Below are positions 33,389-46,649 of a DNA stretch of 64,000 nt, piece after piece. Below the pieces are notes generated by a model, which saw nothing but the letters and a program-made list of their open reading frames with translations, was not told the origin of the DNA and did not search any database. The translations under genes were made by a program, and so were the position numbers. The DNA comes from Gemmatimonadota bacterium (GTDB lineage: Bacteria > JAAXHH01), in NCBI GenBank assembly GCA_009837395.1, contig VXTP01000015.1, positions 297,986-361,985 on the forward strand, written 5' to 3'. The stretch's first letter is position 1, and each line of letters opens with the position of its first letter.

Positions 33389-35068
33389 ATGGAATTCCCA
33401 TTGGAAAACCTGAACGGGTTATTGCTGCCCCTGGCCGCGCTGACCGTGATTTCCGGTCTCGTCGGGCTGGTCATCGGCATGCTCTGGCGGCGCAGCAAAG
33501 CCGGCGAAATGGAGGAGAAGGCCCAGAAGCGCGCCCAGCGCCTCTTCAAGGAAATGGAAGTACAGCGCCGGGCGGAGATGCTGGAGGAAAAGCGAAAGTG
33601 GCACGACGCACGGGAGGCCCAGGAGGAGGAAATCAACAGAAGGCAGTCCGCCCTGGTAAGCCAGGAGCAGGATATGATGGACCGGGAGAAGGAGTGCGAG
33701 CAGCGGTATGACAACCTGAAGGACCGCGAAGATCAGACCGGCCTGCGGGAAGACGAACTGGAAAAGACGGAAGAGAGGCTGAACGCGCAGGAAGTCCGCC
33801 TGAAGGAATCGGCATCGGAATACCGCAACCGGCTGGAGTCCCTGGCCCGGCTGACCTCCGAGGAAGCCAAGCAAAAGCTCCACGGCGAACTCATCCGCGA
33901 CGTGAAGCAGGAAGCCGAGCACCAGGTGAGGGACATCATGAAAACCGCGCAGACCAATGCCAACCGGGAAGCGAGAAAGATCGTTACGCTGGCGATCAGC
34001 CGGTGCGCGGTGGATCAGTCCACACAGACCAGCGTCGCGGTGGTCCCCCTGCCCAACGACCAGATAAAGGCCCGAATCATCGGGAAAGACGGCCGCAACA
34101 TCCGGACTTTCGAGGCGGCCAGCGAAGTGAAGGTGATGGTGGACGATACGCCCGAAGCCGTGGTCATCTCCTGTTTCGATCCCATTCGCCGGGAAATCGC
34201 CCGGACCGCCATGGCGGATCTCGTATCCAACGGGAAGATCACCCAGAGCCGCATCGAGGAAATCATCGGGCGGGCACAGGAACAGATCGACAGCCGCCTG
34301 CTCTCGGAAGGTCAGCAGGCCGTCAACGAGCTCAAACTGAAATCCATGCATCCCGAGATGATGAAGCTGGTCGGCCGGCTGCGGTTCCGTTCCAGTTACG
34401 GCCAGAACGCCCTGGATCACTCGAAGGAGGTGGCGTTCCTCACCGGCATGATGGCCGTCGAGATCGGCCTGGACGAACCGCTCGCCCGGCGCTGCGGGCT
34501 CCTGCATGACGTGGGCAAGGCCCTGGACCACGAGATGGAGGGATCCCACCCGGAAATTGGCCTGGCCTTCGCGGAAAAGTACGGCGAACCCGAGGAAGTC
34601 AAGAACGCCATCATCGCCCATCACAACGACGAGAACGAGGAAATCACCTCGCCGATCACCTTTCTGGTCGCCGCGGCGGACGCCATTTCCGGCGCTCGGC
34701 CCGGCGCCCGCCGGAACGATCCCGAAGACTATGTCCGCAGGGTGGTGGAACTGGAAGAACTCGCCCGTGCCTTCGACGGGGTGGCCGACGCCTACGCCAT
34801 CAATGCCGGTCGCGAGATCCGGGTCATGGTCCGTCCGGACCAGGTGGACGACGACCGGACGCACACGCTGGCTTCCGAGATCTCCCAGAAGATCCGCAAC
34901 GACCTGACCTATCCCGGGCACATCAAGGTGACCGTCATCCGGGAGAAGATCGCCCACAGGATGACGAACAAGCGGGACGACCAGCAGCACGGCGGACGTC
35001 GAAGGTCGTACGGACGAAACCGGAACCGGCGTCATGCTCCGGCGTCCAGCGGACAGGCGGCGGGATAG
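33389..35068 (+). CDS. rny: ribonuclease Y
   Basis: 559 aa. Its parts are an N-terminal TM helix, a long charged coiled-coil, a KH domain (IIGKDGRNIRTFE) and an HD domain (HSKEVAFL...LLHDVGKA). It also has an unusual Arg-rich C-terminal tail. Confidence 0.95.
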   Translation: MEFPLENLNGLLLPLAALTVISGLVGLVIGMLWRRSKAGEMEEKAQKRAQRLFKEMEVQRRAEMLEEKRKWHDAREAQEEEINRRQSALVSQEQDMMDREKECEQRYDNLKDREDQTGLREDELEKTEERLNAQEVRLKESASEYRNRLESLARLTSEEAKQKLHGELIRDVKQEAEHQVRDIMKTAQTNANREARKIVTLAISRCAVDQSTQTSVAVVPLPNDQIKARIIGKDGRNIRTFEAASEVKVMVDDTPEAVVISCFDPIRREIARTAMADLVSNGKITQSRIEEIIGRAQEQIDSRLLSEGQQAVNELKLKSMHPEMMKLVGRLRFRSSYGQNALDHSKEVAFLTGMMAVEIGLDEPLARRCGLLHDVGKALDHEMEGSHPEIGLAFAEKYGEPEEVKNAIIAHHNDENEEITSPITFLVAAADAISGARPGARRNDPEDYVRRVVELEELARAFDGVADAYAINAGREIRVMVRPDQVDDDRTHTLASEISQKIRNDLTYPGHIKVTVIREKIAHRMTNKRDDQQHGGRRRSYGRNRNRRHAPASSGQAAG

Positions 35069-36299
35069 CCACTCCGCGCAGCGGATTCCCGTGTCTCTTA
35101 CCGAAGAAATCAAGGCGCATGCCGCGTCGCTCGGATTCGATCTCGCCGGCGTAACGACGGCCGATCCTCCCCGCCACGGGGATTACTACGCCGAATGGGT
35201 CGAGCAAGGCCTGGCCGGCGAGATGGCCTACCTGGAACGCCAGATCGAGAAGCGCCAGGATCCTCGGAAAATCCTGCCGAACGCCCGGTCCCTCGTCGTG
35301 GTCGCCATGAACTACCGTTGTCCGGACCCGGATCCCGTATCCGGCATGCAGGCCGCCGCGCCTGATGACTCGCCCGAAAGCGCGCCGGGCCAGACACGCC
35401 GTGATTCGCCCGAATTCACGCCGGACCGTTCCCCCCGCGGCAAAATCGCCCGCTATGCCCGGGGCGACGATTACCACGACGTGATGAAGGAGAAGCTGCT
35501 GGCGCTGCTTCGATTCGTGCAGGACCGGACCGGCCGCCCCGTGGAAGGGAAAGTATACGTGGACACGGGGCCCGTGCTGGAACGCGAGTTTGCCGTCCGC
35601 GCCGGCCTGGGGTGGTTCGGGAAGCACACCAACCTCATCCACAAGCGCGTGGGTTCGTGGCTGTTGATCGGAGAGATCCTCCTCGACATCGAACTGGACC
35701 CGGACGGGCCCGCGGCCGATCACTGCGGCACGTGCACCCTGTGCCTCGAAGCCTGTCCCACGGACGCCATCGTCGAGCCTTACGTGGTCGATTCGCGCCG
35801 CTGCATTTCCTACCACACCATCGAACTGAAGGGCGCCATTCCCCCGGAGTACCGCGCGGCGATGGGAGACCGCGTGTTCGGGTGCGACGACTGCCAGGAT
35901 GTCTGTCCCTGGAACCGCAGCGCGCCCGAAACCGGCCATCCGGCCTTTGGTGCCCGTCCTTGGAATGAAATGCCCGACCTCATCGAAATGCTGGGGTTGA
36001 CGCCGGAGGCGTTCAGAACCCGGTTCAAGGGCAGTCCCGTTAAACGGACGAAGCGGCGCGGCCTGCTGCGGAACGCCGCCGTAGCCCTGGGCAACACGAA
36101 GGACCCCGGAGCGGTTCCCGCCCTCGCCGATTCGCTGGGCGACGACGAACCGCTGGTCCGGGGCCATGCGGCCTGGGCGCTGGGAAACATCGGCGGCGAC
36201 GGGGCGTTGGCGGAACTGAAGAAAGCGCGGAAGACCGAAGAAGATCCCTGGGTTGTCGAGGAAATAGACCGGGCCCTTGCCGAGTGCGAGGCGCGCTGA
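35034..36299 (+). CDS. queG: tRNA epoxyqueuosine(34) reductase
   Basis: Has the ferredoxin-type motifs CGTCTLCLEACP and CDDCQDVCPWN, plus C-terminal HEAT-like repeats (DDEPLVRGHAAWALG). The start is uncertain. The ATG at 35034 overlaps rny by 35 nt, and GTG at 35091 is the alternative. About 25 extra P/D/S-rich residues lie between the NY and RYARGDDYH segments. Confidence 0.85.
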   Translation: MLRRPADRRRDSHSAQRIPVSLTEEIKAHAASLGFDLAGVTTADPPRHGDYYAEWVEQGLAGEMAYLERQIEKRQDPRKILPNARSLVVVAMNYRCPDPDPVSGMQAAAPDDSPESAPGQTRRDSPEFTPDRSPRGKIARYARGDDYHDVMKEKLLALLRFVQDRTGRPVEGKVYVDTGPVLEREFAVRAGLGWFGKHTNLIHKRVGSWLLIGEILLDIELDPDGPAADHCGTCTLCLEACPTDAIVEPYVVDSRRCISYHTIELKGAIPPEYRAAMGDRVFGCDDCQDVCPWNRSAPETGHPAFGARPWNEMPDLIEMLGLTPEAFRTRFKGSPVKRTKRRGLLRNAAVALGNTKDPGAVPALADSLGDDEPLVRGHAAWALGNIGGDGALAELKKARKTEEDPWVVEEIDRALAECEAR

Positions 36300-36432: not shown

Positions 36433-38169
36433 ATGATTAGACACCTCCCGCTCATAGGCCTTGTATTCGTCGTCGGTTGCGCCGCCCCCCGGACCCTTGA
36501 ACCGGGTGCGCGCACCACGCCCCCGACCGGAACGGCGGATACCTCCGGGAATACCGTCGCGGTGGAGGAACTGCCCGACCCGGATCTTACCCTCGATCAT
36601 GTCGCCCCGGCCGATTCCCTGGCAATACGGGATCCGGCCAGCCTGCTCGCCGACGCCAGGCTGGGTTATGACGAGGCCCTCTCGGCGCTGGAACGTTCCG
36701 ACACTACGGCCGCGCGCGCCGCGGTCGATGAAGTGCTTGAACTGCTCGTCCTGCTGAGCGACGACCAAAAGCACGCCGCCACCCCCGCGCAGGCCGAACT
36801 CCTCAGGAAGCTCGGACCGCTGGTGGACCGTATCCAGGCCAGGCGCCGTGCCGCCGCCGAAGTCCGGGGTTCGATCCCCAGAGTACTCAACCGCCGTGTC
36901 AGGCAACAGATCGATCTTTTACTCAAAGACAGAGGCCTGAACATACTCAAGGCCTCGTACCAGCGGTCCGGGCGCTACACCCCCATGATCCGCGAAGAAC
37001 TGGCGGCCCGGGGGATGCCACCTGAGCTTCAATGGCTGCCCATCGTCGAAAGCGGTTTCAAACCCAGGGCGTTCTCGTGGGCGTCCGCGGCGGGCATGTG
37101 GCAGTTCATTTTCGATACGGGAAAACGGTACGGACTCCAGCGGTCCGGCTGGGTAGACGACCGCTTCGATCCCATTAAGGCCACCCCGGCCGCCCTCGCC
37201 TACCTGGGGGACCTGTACACCATGTTCGACGACTGGTTTCTCGCCATGGCGGCGTACAACTGCGGAGAGAACCGGGTGCTCCGCGAGATCAACCGGACGG
37301 GGAACCGGGATTACTGGAAGATGCGACTGCCCAGGGAGACCCGAAACTACGTGCCCAAGTTCCTCGCGGTGCTGCATATCATAGAGAACGCGGAGAAATA
37401 CGGCGTCGAGTGGCCGGAAACCCATGATCCCCACCTCTTCGAAGAGGTGCGTATCGACAAGTCGGTCGCGCTGCAGCATGTCGCCGATCTGCTCGCCATG
37501 CCGCAGGACGATCTCAAGGCGCTGAATACCGACATCCGGTATGGCGTGACGCCGCCCACCGGGTTTTCGCTGCGCGTGCCCCTGGGTGCGGGTTCAACCC
37601 TTCTCGGCAGTCTCGACGAGCTTCCGGAGTCGAATTTCAAGCCCCCTCCCGAGGTACGCAGGTACCGCGTGCGTCGGGGTGATACACTGGGCCACATCGC
37701 CCGCAGATTCCGGACCTCGGTCAGCAGACTCCGAAGCATGAACCGGATCCGGGGCAGCCTGATCCGTGTCGGCCAGCTCCTCAGCGTGCCCGGAAGGAAC
37801 TACGGTGGACAGCAATGGGCAGGGCAGACGGCTTCGTACGGTACGCCGAGGGACGCCACTACACACACCGTGCGCCGCGGCGACTCGCTGACCCGCATCG
37901 CCCGGTATTACGGGACATCCGTCACCGCGCTGAAGCAGGCTAACGGTTTGCGGCGGGACATCATCCACCCCGGCCAGGTGCTTCGCCTTTCAGGAAATGG
38001 AAGTGGAAGGGGATCAGGCGGTGCGGTGACCTACAACATCCGGTCGGGGGATACGCTGGCGCGGATCGCCCGGGCCTTCAAGGTTACCCTCGCGGCCCTC
38101 ATGCGGGCGAACCCCGACGTGCAGGCCAGGCGGCTGCAAATCGGTCAGCGGATCATCATTCCCGGCTGA
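36433..38169 (+). CDS. lytic murein transglycosylase (MltD-like) with three LysM domains
   Basis: Has a lipoprotein-type signal (LVFVVGC), an SLT catalytic region (LPIVESGFKP..AAGMWQF..AYNCGE) and three C-terminal LysM repeats (Y.VRRGDTL..IA...). Confidence 0.9.
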   Translation: MIRHLPLIGLVFVVGCAAPRTLEPGARTTPPTGTADTSGNTVAVEELPDPDLTLDHVAPADSLAIRDPASLLADARLGYDEALSALERSDTTAARAAVDEVLELLVLLSDDQKHAATPAQAELLRKLGPLVDRIQARRRAAAEVRGSIPRVLNRRVRQQIDLLLKDRGLNILKASYQRSGRYTPMIREELAARGMPPELQWLPIVESGFKPRAFSWASAAGMWQFIFDTGKRYGLQRSGWVDDRFDPIKATPAALAYLGDLYTMFDDWFLAMAAYNCGENRVLREINRTGNRDYWKMRLPRETRNYVPKFLAVLHIIENAEKYGVEWPETHDPHLFEEVRIDKSVALQHVADLLAMPQDDLKALNTDIRYGVTPPTGFSLRVPLGAGSTLLGSLDELPESNFKPPPEVRRYRVRRGDTLGHIARRFRTSVSRLRSMNRIRGSLIRVGQLLSVPGRNYGGQQWAGQTASYGTPRDATTHTVRRGDSLTRIARYYGTSVTALKQANGLRRDIIHPGQVLRLSGNGSGRGSGGAVTYNIRSGDTLARIARAFKVTLAALMRANPDVQARRLQIGQRIIIPG

Positions 38170-38186: not shown

Positions 38187-38492
38187 ATGGGATACGTCAA
38201 GGCGGCGGAGCTGGATGAGCTGAGTCCGGGCCAGATGAAGATGGTCTCGATCAGCGGGAAGGAGATCGTCCTCTGCAACGTGGACGGGAAGTACTATGCC
38301 GCCGACAATTTCTGCCCCCACATGGGCGCGCCTCTGAGCGAAGGGGAGTTGGACGGCACCGACCTCTGGTGTCCGTTCCACGGCGCGTCTTTCGATGTGA
38401 CCACGGGCGATGTCCTGTCGCCTCCGGCCTACGAAAACCTCACCTGCTTCCCGGTCCGGGTGACCGAAGAAGCCGTGGAAATAGAAATCTAG
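38187..38492 (+). CDS. Rieske [2Fe-2S] ferredoxin-like protein
   Basis: 101 aa with the Rieske ligand motifs CPH (FCPHMG) and CPFH (WCPFHG). AAGGAG RBS. Confidence 0.85.
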   Translation: MGYVKAAELDELSPGQMKMVSISGKEIVLCNVDGKYYAADNFCPHMGAPLSEGELDGTDLWCPFHGASFDVTTGDVLSPPAYENLTCFPVRVTEEAVEIEI

Positions 38493-38497
38493 CCGCC

Positions 38498-38523
38498 AGC
38501 CGCTGACTTCAGCCGCTGACTTC
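38498..38523. repeat. perfect 13-bp tandem duplication that includes the thiL stop codon
   Basis: agccgctgacttc occurs twice (38498-38510 and 38511-38523). The thiL stop (tca on the plus strand) straddles the end of unit 2, and an equivalent tca straddles the unit 1/2 junction. Confidence 0.9.
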
Positions 38524-39598
38524 AACCACTGAAATGTTCGTACCCCTTCGGGCGCAGGGGCCGCGATCCGGTTTGATCCGTAATGGTGTATCCCCGGGCG
38601 GCGGTCACGCATTCGCCAATGGGGGTCAGCGGCGTTCCGGTACGCTCCGCGAGTTCGGCCGCCAGGCGCTCCACCCCCTCCGGCGCTACGGCGCATAGCA
38701 GCTCGAATTCCTCACCGCTTTCCAGGGCCGTCCCGACGGGATCGAGCCGAAGCTCCTCCATGGCCTGCCTGGTTTCCTCCGTGATGGGCAGGGCGTTTCC
38801 ATCCAGGTTCAATCCTACCCCGCTGTCACGAGCCACGTGCAGGGCGTCTGAACTGAGCCCGTCGCTCACGTCGATCATGGCGTGGACCCACCCACTGTTT
38901 GCCAACAGAACGCCTTCGCGGACCCGTGGAACGGGGGTACGGTGACGGCACAACACGCCTTCGAACCGGTCCACCGGCCGCTCCCGAGCCAAACGGAGCA
39001 GGCGGAGGCCGATCTCGCTCGCGCCCAGGTGTCCGGTCACGCACAGGATGTCTCCCGCCCGGGCGCCGCTGCGCCGTGCGATGTGTTCCTCCGAGGCTTC
39101 TCCGCTCACCGTGATGGAGATGACGGTCGGTCCGTCCGTCGAACTCAGATCACCTCCGACGATGGACACCGGGTGGCCTGCGTGCCCGGCCAGGTCCTGA
39201 AAACCCGCGTACAGCGCCTCCACGTCGTCCAATGCGCGATGGCCCGGAAGGCAGAGGGTCGTCAACGCGTGCCGGGGTACGCCGCCCATGGCCGCGATAT
39301 CGCTGAAATTGGCGGCCATGCACTTCCATCCGATCTGCCGCCAGGACGAGAAGGCCAGGTCGAAGTCCACGCCTTCCACGAAGGTGTCGGTCGTCAGCAG
39401 AGTCGTCATGCCGGGCGCTGGAGTGATGGCCGCGGCGTCATCGCCGATCCCCAACAGGACGCTCGGATCCGGCTCCGGCAGCGCGTGCCCGATTCGCTGG
39501 ATCACCTCGAATTCGCCGGGAAGACCCGCACCTTTCTTACGATGCTCCACGTTTCGTCTTTCCCTTCTCGCGCGGCCGACCGCGCCACGCCCGCGCAT
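38522..39598 (-). CDS. thiL: thiamine-monophosphate kinase
   Basis: Has a ThiL/PurM-like N-terminus (GEFEVIQRI...GIGDDAA...TTDTFVEGVDF) and SDIAAMGG. I trimmed the track ORF start. The ATG at 39598 or the GTG at 39550 (preceded by AAGGGA) are plausible, and both avoid overlap with the upstream gene. Confidence 0.9.
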   Translation of the reverse strand: MRGRGAVGRARRERRNVEHRKKGAGLPGEFEVIQRIGHALPEPDPSVLLGIGDDAAAITPAPGMTTLLTTDTFVEGVDFDLAFSSWRQIGWKCMAANFSDIAAMGGVPRHALTTLCLPGHRALDDVEALYAGFQDLAGHAGHPVSIVGGDLSSTDGPTVISITVSGEASEEHIARRSGARAGDILCVTGHLGASEIGLRLLRLARERPVDRFEGVLCRHRTPVPRVREGVLLANSGWVHAMIDVSDGLSSDALHVARDSGVGLNLDGNALPITEETRQAMEELRLDPVGTALESGEEFELLCAVAPEGVERLAAELAERTGTPLTPIGECVTAARGYTITDQTGSRPLRPKGYEHFSG

Positions 39599-39623: not shown

Positions 39624-42389
39624 CTACCCGCCCTTGCCGAACCGCCCTTCGACGCGCTCCCTCGAGCGCGTGAAGATCTCGATGCCGGCCGTAACGCCCC
39701 CACCGAAGAGCAGTCCCTCCAGGGCGCCCAGGGCGACCTGGGTGGTGCGGCCGAATTCGCCTTCCCCGAAGATTGTCGCGATGGTCTCGAGCCGTATCTG
39801 CGACGCATCGAAGGACTGCCGCAGGGTTTCCAGGCTGGCCGTGAACATGTTGCCGCCCATCACGGTCAATACGATGCTGGCAATCATGCCGCCCAGTGCG
39901 CCGAAGACGATGTAGAGCAGGCTTCGCCACTGCCCGGGCCGCCTGGCCAGATAGTACGTGACGACCGGTCCGAGGGCCACGCCCGCGCCGATGAAGGCGC
40001 CTTCGAGACCGCCGGTCAGGTCCGCGGGCTGCCGGCCGAACAGGGTCTGAATGGTATCGGAACTGTACAGGCTGAACGCGGCGCCTACCATGCCGCCGCC
40101 CAGCGCGCCGCCCAGTACGCCGAGCCACCGGCCGTATTTCCCGGATACGCGCCGCAGCGCGACCATGCCGAAGGACACGCCCGCACCGCCGAATGCTCCG
40201 CCGAACAGGCCCAGGCCTGCCAGGACGAAAATGGGCGTGAGCGCCTCCGACGACAGGCCGGAACTGACGGCGGCCAGGGCGGTTCCGAGAAGAAGCCCGC
40301 CGAACAGGCCGGACACGGCGCCGCCGAACGTTCCTCCGATGCCCTGCTGCATGATGTCGATCCCGCCCTGTTGCAGGCGCATCAGTATGAACCCGACCAT
40401 CACCATGACCCGGTACAGCCGGGAAAGCTTGACCGACCGGTTCTGTTCCCGCAGGAAGGCCAGGCTGACCGCCCGCTGGAGACGGCTTACGGACTCGTTG
40501 CCCGTGGGCCGGGTCAGGACCGATTCCACCGCCGAACCGAACCAATCCGCCAGCTCGATACTTGCCGCCCGGCGCACACTCAACATGGGATCCCGCAACG
40601 CAAGGTGCCGGAGCCGGTTGTTCAGCGCCGCGCAGCGCACGGGCCGGGATGACTCCACCGCCCGCTTGCGTACTTCCCGGCGATCGTTGTACATGGCCTC
40701 CAGGATCACGTTCACCGCATCCGGCACCTTTTCGACCAGCCAGGGCGGCACGGGCCGGTCCCGGTTGAGCATGCTGATGCAAAGCAGGTACGCTTCCTGG
40801 CCGGAGACGCCGATTTCTTCCAGGTAAGGTGCGAGCAGGTCCAGGCTTTCATGGTCCATGATGAGCTGGTAGGTCCTGTAATTCTCCACCGACCGTTCGA
40901 GCAGGCTCCGTGCCTGCTTCGCTTCGTAAACGCTGCCGGTCAGCCAGCGGGACACCTCCGAAATCATGCATTCGTGGGCGAGTTCCAGCCACCCTTCCCC
41001 TTCCTGGTTTCGTCGCCGGACGATACGGGCGTCGACCAGTTCCCCGAGCAGCGTTCCCAGGGTGTCGGCGTCATGCCGATCGCCGGCCTGGATACGCGTT
41101 GCCAGATCGGCCTCCCGCACGACGATGAGCCTCTCCTCCGCGGAGATAAGCGCCAGCAACACCTGCTGCACCACGGACAGGTCGGCCGCCGAAAACCGGC
41201 GGAGGACCCTTGCGAGATAGTCGGCCAGGATCTGCGAAGCGCCGCCCAGCTGGTCGTAGGCCGATTCCGTGATCATGTTTTTCATATCGCGTTGATCGTA
41301 CAGCGTATCGCAAACGATCTGCAGGTGCGGCGGATCGACGGTGTCCTCGTCGGAGAGGTCCTCCAGCAGGCGGTCGACGAGCGTGTCTTCGTACCGGCAG
41401 CCGACCCGCCAGGCGGGACCCGTGATGGCCTGTGCGGCCTGTTCGGAGGTCAACCGGCTGAGGCGGTATTCATGGTGGAAGATCTCCGGGACCGCCGGCT
41501 TGAGTCGGCTCATCTCCGCGAGCATGTCCTCCCGCATCACGAAAACGAACTGCAGGGGCAGCGCATCGTCCTCCATGATCACGGCGAGCTCATCGACGAA
41601 CGCCTCCCGGCCCGGTTCATCGAGCAGGAGAAAGAACTCCTCGAACTGGTCCAGCATGACGACGATCCGGGATGCGGGGCGGGACCAGTTCCGGTGCAGC
41701 AGTTCCTGCAGAGAAACGCCGTCCGGATCGACGAAGCCGCCCGCACTGTTATCCGATACGAGCCTTCGGACCATCCGCCGCATGTGCTGCAGGGGATCGG
41801 TGAAACTCCGGATGATACACGTCAGGTGGCCCTGGTCCTGCAACCGGGGGATGAGGCCGGCCCGGAGGATCGAACTCTTGCCGACGCCGGAACGGCCGTA
41901 GAGGAGAAACGAGCGCCGGGCAAGGATGCGGGAGCAGATGTTCTCGATCTCCTCCTCGCGGCCGAAGAAAAGACCCTGGTCGTTCTCGGTGTAGTAATCG
42001 AGGAACTTGTACGGACGGGTCGGTTTGTCTTTGGCAGCCTGCGGGGACGGTTCGTCCACGATCTCCACCGCGTCGCCGATGAAGACGTATCCATGCTTCG
42101 GCACCGTTTTGACGTAACGGGGATTCGACGCGTCATCCTCCAGCTGCTTCCGGATCGACTTGATACACTGGGTCAGCGCCGTATCGCTGACGATCACGTC
42201 CTCCCAGACTTCGTCGAAGATGCGGTTTTTCTCCACCAGTTGCCCCGCATTGGATACCAGCAGCACCAGCACGTCGAAATACCGGGAACTCAGCGGAAGC
42301 ACGGCGTGTTTCCGGCGGATCTGGCGGTTCTGGATATCCAGCACGAAGTCGTCGAACCGGAAGCCTTTTGCGGCGGTCTGTTGCGTCAT
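39624..42389 (-). CDS. winged-helix (OmpR/CadC-type) - STAND P-loop NTPase - HEAT-like repeats - C-terminal glycine-zipper membrane domain protein
   Basis: 921 aa. Residues 1-105 form a Trans_reg_C-like wHTH (FRFDDFVLD...VSDTALTQCIKSIRKQL...VKTVPKHGYVFIG). The NTPase part has PYKFLDYYTENDQGLFFGREEEI, Walker A GRSGVGKSS and Walker B VVMLDQFEEFF. The last ~265 aa consist of repeated GxxxG/GG-rich hydrophobic segments (GGTFGGAVSGLFGGLLLG, GLFGGAFGGAGVSFG, VLGGALGGGMVGAAF). Confidence 0.85.
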   Translation of the reverse strand: MTQQTAAKGFRFDDFVLDIQNRQIRRKHAVLPLSSRYFDVLVLLVSNAGQLVEKNRIFDEVWEDVIVSDTALTQCIKSIRKQLEDDASNPRYVKTVPKHGYVFIGDAVEIVDEPSPQAAKDKPTRPYKFLDYYTENDQGLFFGREEEIENICSRILARRSFLLYGRSGVGKSSILRAGLIPRLQDQGHLTCIIRSFTDPLQHMRRMVRRLVSDNSAGGFVDPDGVSLQELLHRNWSRPASRIVVMLDQFEEFFLLLDEPGREAFVDELAVIMEDDALPLQFVFVMREDMLAEMSRLKPAVPEIFHHEYRLSRLTSEQAAQAITGPAWRVGCRYEDTLVDRLLEDLSDEDTVDPPHLQIVCDTLYDQRDMKNMITESAYDQLGGASQILADYLARVLRRFSAADLSVVQQVLLALISAEERLIVVREADLATRIQAGDRHDADTLGTLLGELVDARIVRRRNQEGEGWLELAHECMISEVSRWLTGSVYEAKQARSLLERSVENYRTYQLIMDHESLDLLAPYLEEIGVSGQEAYLLCISMLNRDRPVPPWLVEKVPDAVNVILEAMYNDRREVRKRAVESSRPVRCAALNNRLRHLALRDPMLSVRRAASIELADWFGSAVESVLTRPTGNESVSRLQRAVSLAFLREQNRSVKLSRLYRVMVMVGFILMRLQQGGIDIMQQGIGGTFGGAVSGLFGGLLLGTALAAVSSGLSSEALTPIFVLAGLGLFGGAFGGAGVSFGMVALRRVSGKYGRWLGVLGGALGGGMVGAAFSLYSSDTIQTLFGRQPADLTGGLEGAFIGAGVALGPVVTYYLARRPGQWRSLLYIVFGALGGMIASIVLTVMGGNMFTASLETLRQSFDASQIRLETIATIFGEGEFGRTTQVALGALEGLLFGGGVTAGIEIFTRSRERVEGRFGKGG

Positions 42390-42635
42390 TTGGGGCTCAA
42401 ATTGCGGATTCCGACGAAAAAAATGAGGGATTCATACGTTCCTCACAGAATACTCACGGGGACCCCATGCAATTCATACTTGATATGAATATAATCCCCA
42501 TATGAGCATAAGTCTAATTTTCCACCGAGACACGGCGGCCAAAGCGTCCTTCATGAAAACCGATTCACTTGCGAATCCGTTTGTGAGTGCGCGCCGCTCG
42601 TGTTTAATTACACCTTAGAAAAGGGGGTAAGCGAG

Positions 42636-43283
42636 ATGTTATCCCATTTCTGCACCATTCCCGAAGCCGTGGAAGAAGTAAGAGCAGGACGGGTGCTGAT
42701 CGTCATCGATGACGAGAACCGCGAGAACGAAGGCGACTTCATGGTGGCCGCCGAAAAGGTCACGCCCGAAATCATCAACTTCATGTCGAGGCACGGACGG
42801 GGGTTGATCTGCCTGCCCACCACGAAACAGCGGCTCGCAGAGCTGGACATCCCCATCATGGTCGATGGGAAAACGTCGACGGGGGACACACCCTTCACGG
42901 TATCCGTGGATGCGGTAAACGGCGTGACGTCCGGCATTTCCGCCCATGACCGGGCGATAAGCGCTCAGTTGTTCGTGCACCCGGATACGGCGCCGGAGGA
43001 CTTCGAGCGGCCGGGACACCTCTTCCCACTGCAGGCACGCGACGGCGGCGTGCTGGAAAGGGACGGACACACCGAGGCCACGGTCGACCTGATGCGGCTG
43101 GCCGGCCTCTACCCGGCGGGGGTCCTGTGCGAGGTGCTGGACGAGGACGGCTCCATGGCCCGTCTTCCCCGGTTGGTCGAAATCGCCGACGAGCATCACC
43201 TGAAAATCGCAACCATCAAGGACCTCATCGAGTACCGCCTCGAAGAGGAACTCGTACTGGAATTCGCCTGCAGCGGTGGGTAA
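42636..43283 (+). CDS. ribB: 3,4-dihydroxy-2-butanone-4-phosphate synthase
   Basis: 215 aa from the ATG at 42636 (AAGGGGG RBS). Has the RibB motifs DDENRENEGD, GRGLICL and HTEATVDL. No fused GTP cyclohydrolase II domain is present. Confidence 0.95.
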   Translation: MLSHFCTIPEAVEEVRAGRVLIVIDDENRENEGDFMVAAEKVTPEIINFMSRHGRGLICLPTTKQRLAELDIPIMVDGKTSTGDTPFTVSVDAVNGVTSGISAHDRAISAQLFVHPDTAPEDFERPGHLFPLQARDGGVLERDGHTEATVDLMRLAGLYPAGVLCEVLDEDGSMARLPRLVEIADEHHLKIATIKDLIEYRLEEELVLEFACSGG

Positions 43284-43289
43284 GGCGGC

Positions 43290-43316
43290 AGGCGTTCCAG
43301 GCGTTCCAGGCGTTCC
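43290..43316. repeat. 9-bp tandem repeat x3 between ribB and hpnC
   Basis: aggcgttcc x3, read directly. Confidence 0.95.
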
Positions 43317-43360
43317 GGCAGACCAGGCGGGCCGGGAGACGGTCTTTTCGCGTCTTATTC

Positions 43361-44299
43361 ATGTCCCAATTACCCGACTATCTGCCGGAAGCCGTACTTC
43401 GGTTCAATGATCTCGCGCTCGACGCGCTGCCCGGCCCCGGGGACGCCTCCCTGGAGTCCGCCCACAGGTACTGCAGTCACCTCGCGCGCCGGCACTACGA
43501 AAATTTCATCGTCGTTTCCCCCTTTCTGCCCACCGAGCTCCGGCGGCACTTCTACCATGTCTATGCCTACTGCCGGTGGTCCGACGACCTCGCCGACGAA
43601 ACCGGAGACACCGGTCTGTCTCTCGAGCTGCTCGACTGGTGGGACGGCGAATTGCAGGCCTGTTACGAAAACGAATTCCGTCATCCGGTATTCATCGCAC
43701 TTCGGGAAACGATCGACCGGTTCGATATACCGATTGCCCCGTTCCGGGACCTGCTGACCGCCTTCCGCCAGGACCAGGTCGTGACGCGTTACAGGACCTA
43801 CGCGGACGTGCTCGAATACTGTCGCTACTCCGCCAATCCAGTGGGCCGTCTCGTGCTCTACCTGTGCGGCTACCGGGACAGGGAACGCCAGTTACTGTCC
43901 GACGCCACGTGCACCGCGCTCCAATTGGCCAATTTCTGGCAGGATGTGCGGGTAGACCTGGAAAAGGGGCGGATCTACTTGCCCCTGAAGGATCTGGGCC
44001 GGTACCATTACACCGAAGAGGACCTCGAAGCCGGGGTCGTCGACGATCGATTCAGGGGACTGATGTCGTACCAGGTGAACCGGACCCGCAGGCTGTTCGA
44101 CGAGGGACTCGGGCTGTGCGGGATGGTGGACGCAAGGGTCGGGCTGGACATCGAACTGTTCAACCGGTGCGGTTCCGCCCTGCTGGACCAGATCGAAAGA
44201 CGGCGTTTCGACGTGCTGTCCCGGCGCCCCACCCTGTCATCCGCCCGGAAGGCCGGTCTTTTTCTGAAATACGCACTGAAACGACTATGGATTCGCTAG
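43361..44299 (+). CDS. hpnC: squalene synthase HpnC (hydroxysqualene synthase)
   Basis: 312 aa from the ATG at 43361. Has the HpnC-type N-terminal HYENFIVVSPFLP and the Asp-rich motif YCRWSDDLADE of the squalene/phytoene synthase fold. Confidence 0.85.
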   Translation: MSQLPDYLPEAVLRFNDLALDALPGPGDASLESAHRYCSHLARRHYENFIVVSPFLPTELRRHFYHVYAYCRWSDDLADETGDTGLSLELLDWWDGELQACYENEFRHPVFIALRETIDRFDIPIAPFRDLLTAFRQDQVVTRYRTYADVLEYCRYSANPVGRLVLYLCGYRDRERQLLSDATCTALQLANFWQDVRVDLEKGRIYLPLKDLGRYHYTEEDLEAGVVDDRFRGLMSYQVNRTRRLFDEGLGLCGMVDARVGLDIELFNRCGSALLDQIERRRFDVLSRRPTLSSARKAGLFLKYALKRLWIR

Positions 44300-45216
44300 C
44301 ACGTTCCTATGATTTCTGCCGCGCAGTCGCGAAATCTAGGGCGAAGAACTTCTACTATTCCTTCCTCGTCCTGCCGGCCGTAAAAAGGCGGGCCATGTGC
44401 GCGGTCTACGCCTTCATGCGCTACTGCGACGATATCGTCGACGAGGAGTCCGGGGAGGCCGGGACGGTGGACCGTCAATCCCAGCTGAAGGTCTGTCGCG
44501 AGATCCTGGACAGCGCTTACGACGGGATGCCGGCCGGAGACGGCGCCTTTGCCGGGTCGCCGGGCGGAACGCCGGGTGGGTCGCCGGGCGGAACGCCGGG
44601 CGAAGACGGCATGTTGCCGGCGTTCAGCGACACGGTGCGGCGGTTCGACATCCCCAGGGCGTACTTCAACGCCATCATCGACGGCGCGGAAATGGACCTT
44701 ACCGTGACACGATACGCCACCTTCGCGGACCTGTACCAGTACTGCTACCGCGTGGCTTCCGCCGTCGGACTGGTGTGCATACGCATCTTCGGATACCATG
44801 GTGATGAAGCCGAGCGGTACGCCGAGTCCTGCGGCATCGCCTTCCAACTGACCAATATCCTCCGCGACATCCGGGAAGACGCCGGGATGGGCCGCGTATA
44901 CCTGCCGCAGGAGGATCTCGACGCCTTCGGGTACCCGGAAGAGCACCTGCGGAACGGACTGTTCAACGACACGTTCCGGCGGCTGATGGGTTTCCAGGTG
45001 GAACGGGCCAGGAGCTTCTACGACGAGGCGCTGCCGCTCCTTCCGCTCGTTCAACCCTCGAGCCGGGCGTGCCTGGCGACGATGATCGGCATCTACCGGG
45101 CATGCCTCGAGGAAATCCCCCGCCGCCAGTACGACGTCTATAGCCAGCGCATCGGCCTGTCCCCGTGGAAGAAACTCTCCATCACGGCCCGGGCGCTGAT
45201 CCGAAAGCGCGTATGA
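44287..45216 (+). CDS. hpnD: presqualene diphosphate synthase HpnD
   Basis: 309 aa with NFYYSFLVLP..KRRAMCAVYAFMRYCDDIVDE, a phytoene/squalene synthase signature. It overlaps hpnC by 13 nt and contains a duplicated GSPGGTPG insert. Confidence 0.85.
   Translation: MDSLARSYDFCRAVAKSRAKNFYYSFLVLPAVKRRAMCAVYAFMRYCDDIVDEESGEAGTVDRQSQLKVCREILDSAYDGMPAGDGAFAGSPGGTPGGSPGGTPGEDGMLPAFSDTVRRFDIPRAYFNAIIDGAEMDLTVTRYATFADLYQYCYRVASAVGLVCIRIFGYHGDEAERYAESCGIAFQLTNILRDIREDAGMGRVYLPQEDLDAFGYPEEHLRNGLFNDTFRRLMGFQVERARSFYDEALPLLPLVQPSSRACLATMIGIYRACLEEIPRRQYDVYSQRIGLSPWKKLSITARALIRKRV
44554..44601. repeat. in-frame 24-bp tandem duplication in hpnD encoding GSPGGTPG twice
   Basis: gggtcgccgggcggaacgccgggt followed by gggtcgccgggcggaacgccgggc, 23/24 identical. 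Confidence 0.95.
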
Positions 45217-46649
45217 CCCAGGCAATCGTCATCGGAGGAGGGCTGGCCGGACTGGCCGGCGCGGTCGCACTGGCCGATGCCGGCTTACAGGTCGAACTGT
45301 ACGAAAGGCGTCCGATCCTGGGCGGCCGCGCCACCTCCTTCATCCACCCGTCGAGCGGCGAAAGGGTGGACAACTGCCAGCACGTGCTCCTGGGCTGCTG
45401 CGTCAACCTCCTCGACTTCTACACGCGCCTCGGCGTCGCGGAACACATCGATTTCCACGAGGACATCCCGTTCATCGACGAATCCAGCCGGGTCTCGGTC
45501 ATCGGGCCCTCGGCGCTCCCGCCGCCCCTGCACCTGTTTCCATCGTTCCTGCGGCTGAAAACCATGGGCATCCGGGACAAGCTGTCCATCGTCCGCACCG
45601 TGGCCGGCATGATTCGCCACGTTGCCAGACTACGGAGAACCGGCGATCCGGCCGTGGAGCCAACCCCGGTTTCCATGGCCGCCTGGCTCAAGGCCCACGG
45701 GGCAACGGACCGGGCCGTCGAAGCCTTCTGGAAACCCTTCCTGATCAGCGCGCTGAACGACGAACTGGACGACATCGATGCCGACTACGGAATCGGAACG
45801 GCCGTCCGGGCCATGCTGCTTAATCGCAGCGGATACGAGGTGGGACTGCCCGCCGTTCCGCTGGGGGATCTTTACGCGCCCTGCATAGACTACATCGAAC
45901 AGCGGGGCGGCCGCGTGGTATTCAACCGGGGGGTTACCGGCATTTCAGTCCACGACGGCGAAGTGGCCTCCATCTCGCTGCAGGACGGTTCGTCTGTCGA
46001 AGCCGGGGCTTACCTTTCGGCCCTGCCTTTCGACGTCCTGTGCAAGCTGCTTCCTCAAAGCAACGCCTCGGATCCCTACTTCTCGATGCTGGACGGGCTG
46101 TCGGTTTCGCCCATCACGGCCGTGCACGTCTGGTTCGACCGGCCCGTGACGGAACTGGGCTACGCCGCGGTGATCGGCCGGAGGATACAGTGGATATTCA
46201 ACCAGTCCAGCCGGCACGCCGGCGCCTTCTCCGCGGATAACGGCGGCGCCTATCTCGGCCTCGTGGTCAGCGCTTCCGATGACTGGATGAAAACGCCCCG
46301 GCAGGTCATCATCGACCAGGCCATGGAAGACCTCGAATCCCTCTTGCCCGCCGTGCGCCAGGCCAAACTGCTCAAGGCCATCGTCGTCAAGGAGGGCCGG
46401 GCCACCTTCGCGCCCCGTCCCGGCTGCGACGCGCTGCGCCCCGGTCCTTCCAGTCCCCTTGCCAATTTCTCCATCGCCGGCGACTGGGTGCAGACGGGCT
46501 GGCCGGCGACCATGGAAAGCGCCGTGCGCAGCGGTTACCAGGCCGCCGAGGTCCTGTTGCGGGCCCGGGGCGTCCGGACGCCCATCCTGAAACCCGACCT
46601 CCCCGCAGAGGGCCTGATGAAGTGGGTTACGGGACTGCGGGGCTTCTGA
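45213..46649 (+). CDS. hpnE: hydroxysqualene dehydroxylase HpnE (FAD-dependent)
   Basis: 478 aa with the N-terminal FAD fold AIVIGGGLAGLAGAVALADAG..ELYERRPILGGRA. Its start overlaps the hpnD stop as ATGA. It is the third gene of the canonical hpnCDE order. Confidence 0.85.
   Translation: MTQAIVIGGGLAGLAGAVALADAGLQVELYERRPILGGRATSFIHPSSGERVDNCQHVLLGCCVNLLDFYTRLGVAEHIDFHEDIPFIDESSRVSVIGPSALPPPLHLFPSFLRLKTMGIRDKLSIVRTVAGMIRHVARLRRTGDPAVEPTPVSMAAWLKAHGATDRAVEAFWKPFLISALNDELDDIDADYGIGTAVRAMLLNRSGYEVGLPAVPLGDLYAPCIDYIEQRGGRVVFNRGVTGISVHDGEVASISLQDGSSVEAGAYLSALPFDVLCKLLPQSNASDPYFSMLDGLSVSPITAVHVWFDRPVTELGYAAVIGRRIQWIFNQSSRHAGAFSADNGGAYLGLVVSASDDWMKTPRQVIIDQAMEDLESLLPAVRQAKLLKAIVVKEGRATFAPRPGCDALRPGPSSPLANFSIAGDWVQTGWPATMESAVRSGYQAAEVLLRARGVRTPILKPDLPAEGLMKWVTGLRGF

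Follow-up and report, generated by a model that had tools for sequence, protein, structure and literature searches.

The 64,000-nucleotide stretch of contig VXTP01000015.1 from a Gemmatimonadota bacterium analysed here (the window) carries on its minus strand a gene for a 921-residue protein, a candidate transcriptional regulator, in which a DNA-binding winged helix, a STAND-class P-loop NTPase, a region with HEAT-like repeats and a glycine-rich membrane domain follow one another in a single chain (Table 1). An initial annotation, made from the letters alone, had described the open reading frame (ORF) and these four parts, and both the frame and the parts held in the profile, structure and homology searches reported below. 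Divergently from the regulator gene reads the operon ribB-hpnC-hpnD-hpnE, and in the intergenic region a candidate operator of 11-bp direct repeats precedes a predicted promoter of that operon. On the other side thiL starts about 25 nt downstream on the same strand, as had been annotated.

Table 1. Coordinates of the features at the regulator locus and at loci used for comparison (L numbers)
Feature	Locus	Position	Strand	Basis or remark
Regulator gene: winged helix, nSTAND1, HEAT-like region, six-transmembrane glycine-zipper domain	window	39624..42389	-	ORF of 921 residues and stop; full-length homologues 49-99% identical
OmpR/ToxR/CadC-type winged-helix DNA-binding domain, residues 1-105	window	42075..42389	-	Pfam, Foldseek, PDB profile
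nSTAND1 P-loop NTPase with helical and winged-helix subdomains, residues 126-486	window	40932..42014	-	PF20703, invariant columns, Foldseek
Helical linker and HEAT-like repeats joining NTPase to membrane domain, residues 487-655	window	40425..40931	-	AlphaFold2 model, profile matches
Glycine-zipper membrane domain, one interfacial helix and six predicted transmembrane helices, residues 656-921	window	39627..40424	-	composition, hydropathy, topology
Candidate operator, four in-phase 11-bp units GGATTCATACG TTCCTCACAGA ATACTCACGGG GACCCCATGCA	window	42428..42471	+	toward ribB-hpnCDE
-10 box TATAAT, 18 nt after last repeat unit	window	42490..42495	+	invariant in Gemmatimonadota alignment A4
Predicted sigma-70-like promoter of regulator: -35 TAGACT, 17 nt, -10 TATATT	window	42488..42516	-	consensus scan, 1 vs 0.3 expected
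Divergent operon ribB-hpnC-hpnD-hpnE	window	42636..46649	+	NCBIfam
ribB	window	42636-43283 (or GTG start at 42600)	+	RibB 237 bits, cut-off 177
hpnC	window	43361-44299	+	HpnC 332 bits, cut-off 250
hpnD	window	44287-45216	+	HpnD 275.7 bits, just under cut-off 278.6
hpnE	window	45213-46649	+	HpnE 428 bits, cut-off 283
thiL, 25 nt downstream of regulator	window	38522..39598	-	NCBIfam 281 bits, cut-off 184
Inverted repeat core TTGTGAG in ribB leader	window	42580-42602	+	one copy, kept in six loci
queG-like epoxyqueuosine reductase ORF	window	35034-36299		read from translation
578-residue protein with apparent LysM-like repeats and lytic-transglycosylase-like region	window	36433-38169		read from translation
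Small Rieske-type ORF	window	38187-38492		read from translation
Gene of membrane-anchored protein of about 179 residues	L088	2782-3321	-	equivalents in L011, L101, L107, L114, L118, L121
B12-binding radical S-adenosylmethionine gene	L088	3394-4929	-	
Short-form gene	L164	6476-7585	+	
Short-form gene, Sphingomicrobium nitratireducens (cultured)	L166	8001-9062	+	
Sphingomicrobium neighbouring stretch	L166	741-3043	-	
Sphingomicrobium neighbouring stretch	L166	6817-8025	+	
Small membrane protein beside short-form gene	L168	3946-4518	-	
ORF of about 80 residues	L156	7956-8168		also in L157, L159, L160
ORF of about 80 residues	L158	7001-7243		

Domain architecture of the 921-residue protein

The closest solved relatives of the N-terminal DNA-binding domain are ToxR and CadC. 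Among the Pfam hidden Markov models Trans_reg_C is matched at residues 31-103 (E=8e-18, 64.7 bits, cut-off 26.2), NCBIfam matches are confined to the N-terminus with the DNA-binding heads of HilA and CadC as the best ones, and Foldseek aligned the modelled winged helix with ToxR (8b4b) at a TM-score of 0.86-0.88 and 31-33% identity, with RstA and CadC also matched. The winged-helix part of a family profile, compared with the PDB sequences, found CadC (1e-16) and ToxR (7e-16). From here a variable, low-confidence linker (residues 106-124) runs straight into the NTPase, and a BTAD domain gave no Pfam match at E<=1.

The second part belongs to nSTAND1, a clade defined in predicted conflict systems (PMC8195603; PMC10907252). 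PF20703 is matched with E=9e-60 (203.8 bits, cut-off 27.1) over model positions 1-354 of 379; elsewhere the Pfam scan of the protein gave weak generic P-loop matches only, and beyond residue 486 no match. The Walker A (G165-R-S-G-V-G-K-S-S173) and Walker B (D247-Q-F-E-E251) motifs are present as annotated, and GRSGVGKSS, DQFEEFF and RPYKFLDYY are invariant in 74 homologues with the exception of V169 (V or A) and E251 (at least 90%). Behind the NTPase core the AlphaFold2 (AF2) model continues with helices and a beta-hairpin at 457-470, and H472, an MHD-like histidine, is again invariant in the 74 sequences. The modelled NTPase gave Foldseek matches to Cdc6/Orc1, CED-4, Apaf-1, Avs5 and ZAR1, those to Cdc6/Orc1, CED-4, Apaf-1 and ZAR1 spanning 370-550 columns at E=1e-7 to 1e-4. 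The score above the family threshold, the Walker motifs and the helical plus winged-helix nucleotide-binding oligomerisation (NOD) module are the features by which the protein is counted here to nSTAND1.

The helical-repeat region that follows is all-helical and modelled with a predicted local distance difference test (pLDDT) of 85-94. A HEAT_2 match is weak for the window protein alone (E=0.13) but the assignment is solid at the level of the family, as residues 558-650 of the 74-sequence profile matched HEAT-type alphaRep proteins with E=2e-15 and the HEAT protein 6veh with 8e-5, and PF13646 is precomputed for several homologues. In the AF2 model of the full-length protein (pLDDT 76.8, predicted TM-score (pTM) 0.49) the four parts appear in order, namely the winged helix, the alpha/beta NTPase with its subdomains, the confident helical repeats and a helical C-terminal bundle.

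This bundle, residues 656-921 (266 residues), consists of glycine to 21% and contains 21 GxxxG motifs versus two in residues 1-655. It is all-helical in the AlphaFold models and, modelled on its own, reached a pLDDT of 76 and a pTM of 0.71. The distribution of lysine and arginine in the 74-sequence alignment fits an interfacial helix (657-674) and six transmembrane (TM) helices with both ends in the cytoplasm, the predicted inner loops being positively charged and the outer loops neutral or acidic. The largest outer loop (847-883, 37 residues) is acidic and conserved, and within the predicted TM helices E891 is invariant and E796 nearly so. Neither Pfam (best Pam17, E=0.12, below threshold) nor the PDB sequences searched with the domain profile (best E=0.26) gave a significant match, and Foldseek found no significant PDB fold for the TM-only model (best E=0.12, TM-score at most 0.36 for full-length matches). 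A weak likeness to complex I subunit B14.7/Tim17-like glycine-rich proteins was discarded as not significant (E about 0.3-0.6). With its approximately 260 residues the domain is new, without an annotated or solved relative, and its partner is always a DNA-binding domain of ToxR type.

Conservation, divergent operons and a candidate operator

A search of 5.8 billion proteins returned more than 1,400 matches at E<=1e-5, and all but two of the best 120 are full-length (98-100% coverage, about 905-968 residues). Identity is 73-99% in Gemmatimonadota, to which a few of the 56-61% matches also belong (P0001, 99%), and about 49-60% in Latescibacteria, KSB1, Zixibacteria and Acidobacteriota/Blastocatellia; Calditrichia were added by a scan of species-representative genomes, all full-length matches there being metagenome-assembled genomes. 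In the present searches the family was encountered almost exclusively in such genomes, and the window also stems from one, of a Gemmatimonadota bacterium. Full-length homologues (98-100% coverage, 49-60% identity) occur in at least five phyla. The mean column identity across phyla is 62-66%, and conservation is uniform along the chain, with mean top-residue frequencies of 0.81 in the winged helix as the best-conserved part, 0.71 in the NTPase, 0.64-0.71 in the helical region and 0.68 in the membrane domain; the only variable part is the linker. In the metagenomic loci with enough sequence, the winged helix-turn-helix (wHTH), nSTAND1, the middle (HEAT) region and the TM domain are found all together. 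The complete chain has been kept together in several phyla. The architecture, which the initial annotation had called unusual, is thereby that of a conserved full-length family. The listed matches are annotated as 'wHTH domain protein', 'transcriptional regulator' or 'hypothetical protein' and bear no more specific name. The literature searched on nSTAND1, on proteins with wHTH, STAND and TM parts and on uppS regulation contains no description of this architecture.

When the profile of the TM domain was run against 1.84 billion cluster representatives, 399 proteins were found, many of which have a length of about 345-390 residues. All ten short or intermediate forms tested gave an N-terminal Trans_reg_C match and nothing else, and the membrane domain is found only fused to this kind of winged helix. 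As the winged helix and the membrane domain are paired in long and short forms, they make up the core pair, and the STAND and HEAT parts represent an insertion between them.

The gene contexts of the family vary by phylum and are of housekeeping character (serA-like, GCV_T, Rho, Lon, ClpX, bactofilin and cytochrome c genes). In an all-against-all comparison of the flanking ORFs, the sole neighbour shared outside Gemmatimonadota is a divergent upstream cis-prenyltransferase gene, assigned to UppS with 345 bits (NCBIfam cut-off 304). In the Gemmatimonadota-type loci the divergent genes encode HpnC, HpnD and HpnE in all five groups, the gene ahead of them being ribB in close relatives and a Zn-dependent dehydrogenase gene in deeper ones. 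After dereplication of the loci by upstream sequence, nine of 23 non-redundant groups have uppS and five have hpnCDE divergently upstream, four have neither despite at least 4 kb of upstream sequence, and in five the upstream sequence is too short to tell. UppS and HpnC/D consume farnesyl diphosphate (FPP) and make membrane polyprenoids. By family assignment the divergent operon encodes predicted FPP-consuming polyprenoid enzymes, HpnC/D/E (squalene) in Gemmatimonadota and UppS (undecaprenyl diphosphate) elsewhere. That no partner genes were evident, as annotated initially, is correct for the window alone but not in comparison, where the divergent ribB-hpnC-hpnD-hpnE operon emerges as a conserved partner. 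The stop and start codons of hpnC, hpnD and hpnE overlap in the window, which suggests translational coupling. A conserved small divergent partner protein was considered as well and rejected, as the small ORFs adjoining the regulator in different lineages are dissimilar, with no mutual sequence similarity detectable.

Most of the upstream regions share tandem direct repeats with an 11-bp period, three or four units with the core TCA and the consensus TTTCTCAC, located on the strand opposite to the regulator, whose start codon is 17-70 nt away. Of the 23 non-redundant upstream regions 12-14 contain the k-mer TTCTCACA (null about 0.3, null maximum 5), and in a scan with a two-unit position weight matrix (PWM) the repeat array is the top site of the whole locus (6-22 kb) in most loci, including loci outside the PWM training. 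Read toward the divergent gene, the array is followed across phyla by 17-19 nt and a TAnnnT -10 hexamer, with the last repeat unit taking the -35 position. A relaxed pattern of this arrangement (TCA-N8-TCA-N8-YCA-N21-23-TAnnn[T/G]) is present in the divergent orientation in 19 of the 23 groups and in the orientation of the regulator in none; 300 shuffles gave a mean of 0.00 and a maximum of 1, and the 610 kb of loci and window, both strands included, contain 21 matches. A stricter pattern retained 13 groups, with zero in the shuffles. The array is missing in four groups, exactly those that have neither uppS nor hpn genes as neighbours. In loci of the Blastocatellia type, where a radical S-adenosylmethionine (SAM) gene intervenes between the regulator and the uppS operon, a second three-unit array is found 44-75 nt upstream of the operon that starts with the gene of a conserved 179-residue membrane protein, directly followed by uppS, 1.6-1.8 kb from the regulator.

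In the window, plus-strand position 42439 gives the best PWM match of the 64 kb, a single CTCAC-N6-CTCAC is present (at 42442, 0.14 expected), the full array/promoter pattern has a single match in 128 kb, and the operator block is kept in six Gemmatimonadota loci. The divergent promoter has no -35 consensus, the last repeat unit sitting in its place, and its predicted start site near 42502 faces ribB (ATG 42636), hpnC, hpnD and hpnE. The predicted minus-strand promoter would put the array at about +10 to +53 of the regulator transcript. A regulator bound to repeats in the leader of its own transcript would probably damp its expression, which suggests negative autoregulation.

PWM matches that recur on the sense strand of the regulator coding region near +1,420-1,426 in many loci (for example L089 1877, L103 4129) were rejected as regulatory sites, because they derive from the conserved peptide DFLT (GAT TTT CTC AC). 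Such coding matches are a trap for motif scans.

A candidate membrane-integral switch and its alternatives

AfsR, the closest precedent worked out so far, has an OmpR-type DNA-binding domain, a STAND NTPase and repeats, and its target, a set of 11-bp direct repeats, overlaps the -35 position (PMC10936776); together with MalT and GutR it is cited as a STAND regulator (PMC13581612). The protein of the window resembles AfsR and the large SARP regulators of Streptomyces in having an OmpR-type winged helix, a STAND NTPase and helical repeats in the same order in one chain, and in its predicted target of 11-bp direct repeats over the -35 position of a promoter without a good -35. With respect to the 11-bp repeat target that characterizes SARP/AfsR, a DNA architecture that matches it adjoins the gene, as a site predicted from sequence only. 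On the other hand, the protein has no BTAD, it belongs to the nSTAND1 and not to the NB-ARC clade, its repeats are HEAT-like instead of TPR, and while AfsR is soluble it ends in a six-TM membrane domain. The arrays differ as well: here three or four units stop about 18 nt short of the -10 box, in the case of AfsR two units stop 8 bp short of it.

With ToxR, CadC, PsaE and TcpP the protein shares the membrane-tethered one-component design, an N-terminal OmpR-type winged helix, here predicted to be cytoplasmic, and a direct-repeat target, likewise a predicted one here. While ToxR-like receptors possess one TM helix and a periplasmic sensor, the present protein has a polytopic glycine-rich domain with a 37-residue outer loop, and a 530-residue ATPase/HEAT module lies between its DNA-binding domain and the membrane. 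With six predicted TM helices it is not a member of the ToxR-like receptors, but probably works in a similar way. Having neither a BTAD nor a single TM helix with a periplasmic domain, it stands outside both families and represents a new variant that combines the principles of both.

The protein is best read as a STAND activator of polyprenoid lipid synthesis that resembles AfsR and, in its membrane tethering, ToxR. Domain order, gene neighbourhood and the predicted operator make it reasonably probable that it is a membrane-integral one-component transcription factor with an ATP switch that controls isoprenoid (polyprenoid) lipid genes. Most likely, the neighbouring isoprenoid-lipid genes are turned on, for squalene in this bacterium and for the cell-wall lipid carrier in other phyla. 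A membrane-tethered transcription factor had already been one of the two suggestions of the initial annotation, and the ToxR/CadC-like head, the membrane domain bound to a winged helix and the conserved operator/promoter speak in its favour.

Mechanistically, the protein would act as an oligomer whose cytoplasmic winged helices line up head to tail on the repeats along one DNA face, with the last repeat unit in place of the absent -35 element, and binding would bring RNA polymerase to the divergent promoter in the manner of PhoB, SARP/AfsR and ToxR. The STAND module may switch between ADP and ATP and thereby determine whether the protein is oligomeric and competent to bind DNA, and the membrane domain may be the input, which would be passed on through the HEAT repeats. 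This input would most likely be a membrane property tied to polyprenoid lipids, such as the supply of lipid carrier or of squalene/hopanoid, or envelope stress; it is the least supported step of the scheme and rests on guilt by association.

More specifically, the six-TM domain itself may sense the polyprenoid lipid status (undecaprenyl phosphate, lipid-carrier availability, squalene/hopanoid) and tune transcription of uppS or hpnCDE via the HEAT and STAND parts, which we put forward as a tentative proposal, possible and not probable. If true, the logic of the family would parallel, in bacteria, the SREBP-SCAP feedback of eukaryotes, in that both are membrane sensors that couple the level of isoprenoid lipids to transcription of their biosynthesis; this functional analogy is drawn from gene neighbourhood, and there is neither a sequence or fold relationship nor evidence of proteolytic release. 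It would also be the first STAND NTPase to detect its ligand within the membrane, and uppS would have its first dedicated transcriptional regulator, no dedicated uppS transcription factor being found in the literature searched.

Several points weigh against this interpretation. The linkage with uppS and hpnCDE could partly be inherited synteny, and four groups have the regulator elsewhere. All evidence is computational and mostly from metagenome-assembled genomes, the assignment of the repeats to the protein is drawn from co-occurrence and geometry, the array of the window is degenerate (PWM 12.9 vs 27-35 in other phyla), and activation was preferred to repression solely on account of the absent -35 element. 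The TM topology was estimated from charge bias, and the confidence of the full-length AF2 model is moderate (pLDDT about 77). With respect to the switch, ATP need not change the oligomeric state or DNA binding of AfsR (PMC10936776).

One alternative is a membrane-tethered transcription factor without isoprenoid link, with mainly autoregulatory repeats and an adjacency to uppS or hpnCDE that is inherited synteny or coincidence; its actual regulon would lie elsewhere, as would its signal, for instance pH, ions or a general envelope stress. The closeness of the array to the start codon of the regulator itself, the varying first divergent gene (ribB, Zn-dependent dehydrogenase, radical-SAM or small unrelated membrane proteins), the four groups entirely without a uppS/hpn neighbour and the short forms adjoining other genes would all be compatible with it, but the array always points to the divergent gene and has its own -10 box at the fixed 17-19 nt, and two different FPP-consuming pathways hold the same position in different phyla. 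Moreover, the groups that have lost the uppS/hpn neighbour are also without array, which argues that autoregulation is not the conserved feature, and where another gene intervenes, the uppS operon has a second array immediately ahead of it. We consider this explanation rather unlikely.

Another possibility concerns the origin of the signal. Ligands of known STAND regulators bind to the repeat or arm domain, and by analogy to MalT (maltotriose) and GutR (glucitol) a cytoplasmic ligand could be sensed by the STAND/HEAT module, the HEAT-like repeats of which are well conserved and confidently modelled, with the membrane domain as mere anchor or oligomerisation scaffold. The membrane domain is, however, conserved like the NTPase (0.68 vs 0.71), has invariant polar/acidic residues within the membrane and the outer loop and persists in short forms without STAND and HEAT, and a mere anchor would not need 266 conserved residues, so that an anchor function appears improbable.

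An abortive-infection or conflict STAND protein, the glycine-zipper tail of which forms a pore after sensing of an invader, had been the other suggestion of the initial annotation and, although the nSTAND1 clade was defined in predicted conflict systems and some pore formers have glycine zippers, is highly improbable, as the tail always comes with a winged helix, also in forms that lack the NTPase, the N-terminal 'effector' place is held by a DNA-binding domain with a matching conserved operator, PADLOC defence models gave 0 matches, the viral-contig scan gave no relatives, the neighbourhoods examined are non-conserved housekeeping contexts with no defence genes, and the orthologue-like conservation of sequence and length across phyla (66% mean column identity) is unlike that of fast-evolving defence STANDs. 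With anti-phage STANDs (Avs, bNACHT, nSTAND conflict systems) the protein has the NTPase core in common, through which Foldseek finds Avs5 and plant/animal NLRs, but it possesses neither an enzymatic or death effector nor a defence context and is conserved like a housekeeping regulator.

Beyond a few model organisms, little is known about how bacteria set the supply of the undecaprenyl lipid carrier and of squalene-derived lipids. The family is a testable candidate for such control in several poorly studied phyla, with a defined protein, an operator of fixed promoter geometry and target genes, and it would add a membrane-integrated transcriptional switch to the STAND NTPases, work on which has so far centred on immune receptors.

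Neighbouring genes and short forms

No terminator-like site was detected between the regulator and thiL, so that co-transcription of the two is possible. The adjacency of thiL is restricted to Gemmatimonadota-type loci (six close relatives and L136) and absent in other lineages. On the upstream side of thiL the window contains the queG-like, the LysM-like and the Rieske-type frames of Table 1. Behind hpnE, no squalene-hopene cyclase gene is found within 7 kb (46.7-53.8 kb), where genes for a xylose-isomerase-like protein, an aminotransferase, a glycosyltransferase and a methyltransferase are located; a hopanoid, a C30 carotenoid or another compound are candidates for the fate of squalene in this organism.

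In the ribB leader, a terminator-like hairpin precedes TTTAATT and shares sequence with the inverted repeat core; this site may serve as an attenuator or for additional binding. Flavin mononucleotide (FMN) riboswitches are often found upstream of ribB genes. Such a riboswitch was rejected here, since Rfam was negative at 38-47 kb (E<=1) and in the whole window (gathering thresholds), and the conserved ribB leader is therefore not a known RNA.

In Blastocatellia-type loci, the first gene of the uppS operon encodes the membrane-anchored protein of about 179 residues, which has no family match. The B12-binding radical-SAM gene is in these loci the immediate divergent neighbour of the regulator and thus located behind the repeat array. 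Its product matches HpnJ, BchE and HpnR best, all far under the thresholds (HpnJ 82.7 bits, cut-off 577.6), and a role as hopanoid enzyme was rejected in favour of a generic B12-binding radical-SAM protein on the basis of the HpnJ score.

In the short-form family (P0139-P0269; 345-390 residues) a ToxR-type winged helix is fused straight to the glycine-zipper membrane domain without STAND and HEAT parts. Annotations are restricted to wHTH proteins or transcriptional regulators, and the short form of Sphingomicrobium nitratireducens matched 3,778 proteins at E<=1e-10. Just ahead of the short-form genes of two loci outside the training (L167, L168), CTCA units occur three times in phase. Beside the short-form gene of L168 a small membrane protein is encoded divergently, to which a C-terminal extension of P0191 is homologous (residues 389-560, 36% identity over 173 residues, E=6e-18); this fusion is a Rosetta-stone hint that short forms may work with that membrane-protein neighbour.

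The short-form gene of Sphingomicrobium overlaps the end of a gene for an FAD-dependent oxidoreductase with a weakly lycopene-cyclase-like N-terminus, and dxs and a gene for a DgkA-type kinase are located at a distance of about 5 kb, a context that may be a further isoprenoid link or a coincidence. Finally, ORFs of about 80 residues, all from the metagenome Ga0247727, correspond to the last ~70 residues of the membrane domain with 69-73% identity and may be gene remnants or a stand-alone mini-protein. At the two of these loci inspected, L156 and L158, a histidine-kinase gene is located near the small frame, accompanied in L156 by a LytTR response-regulator gene.

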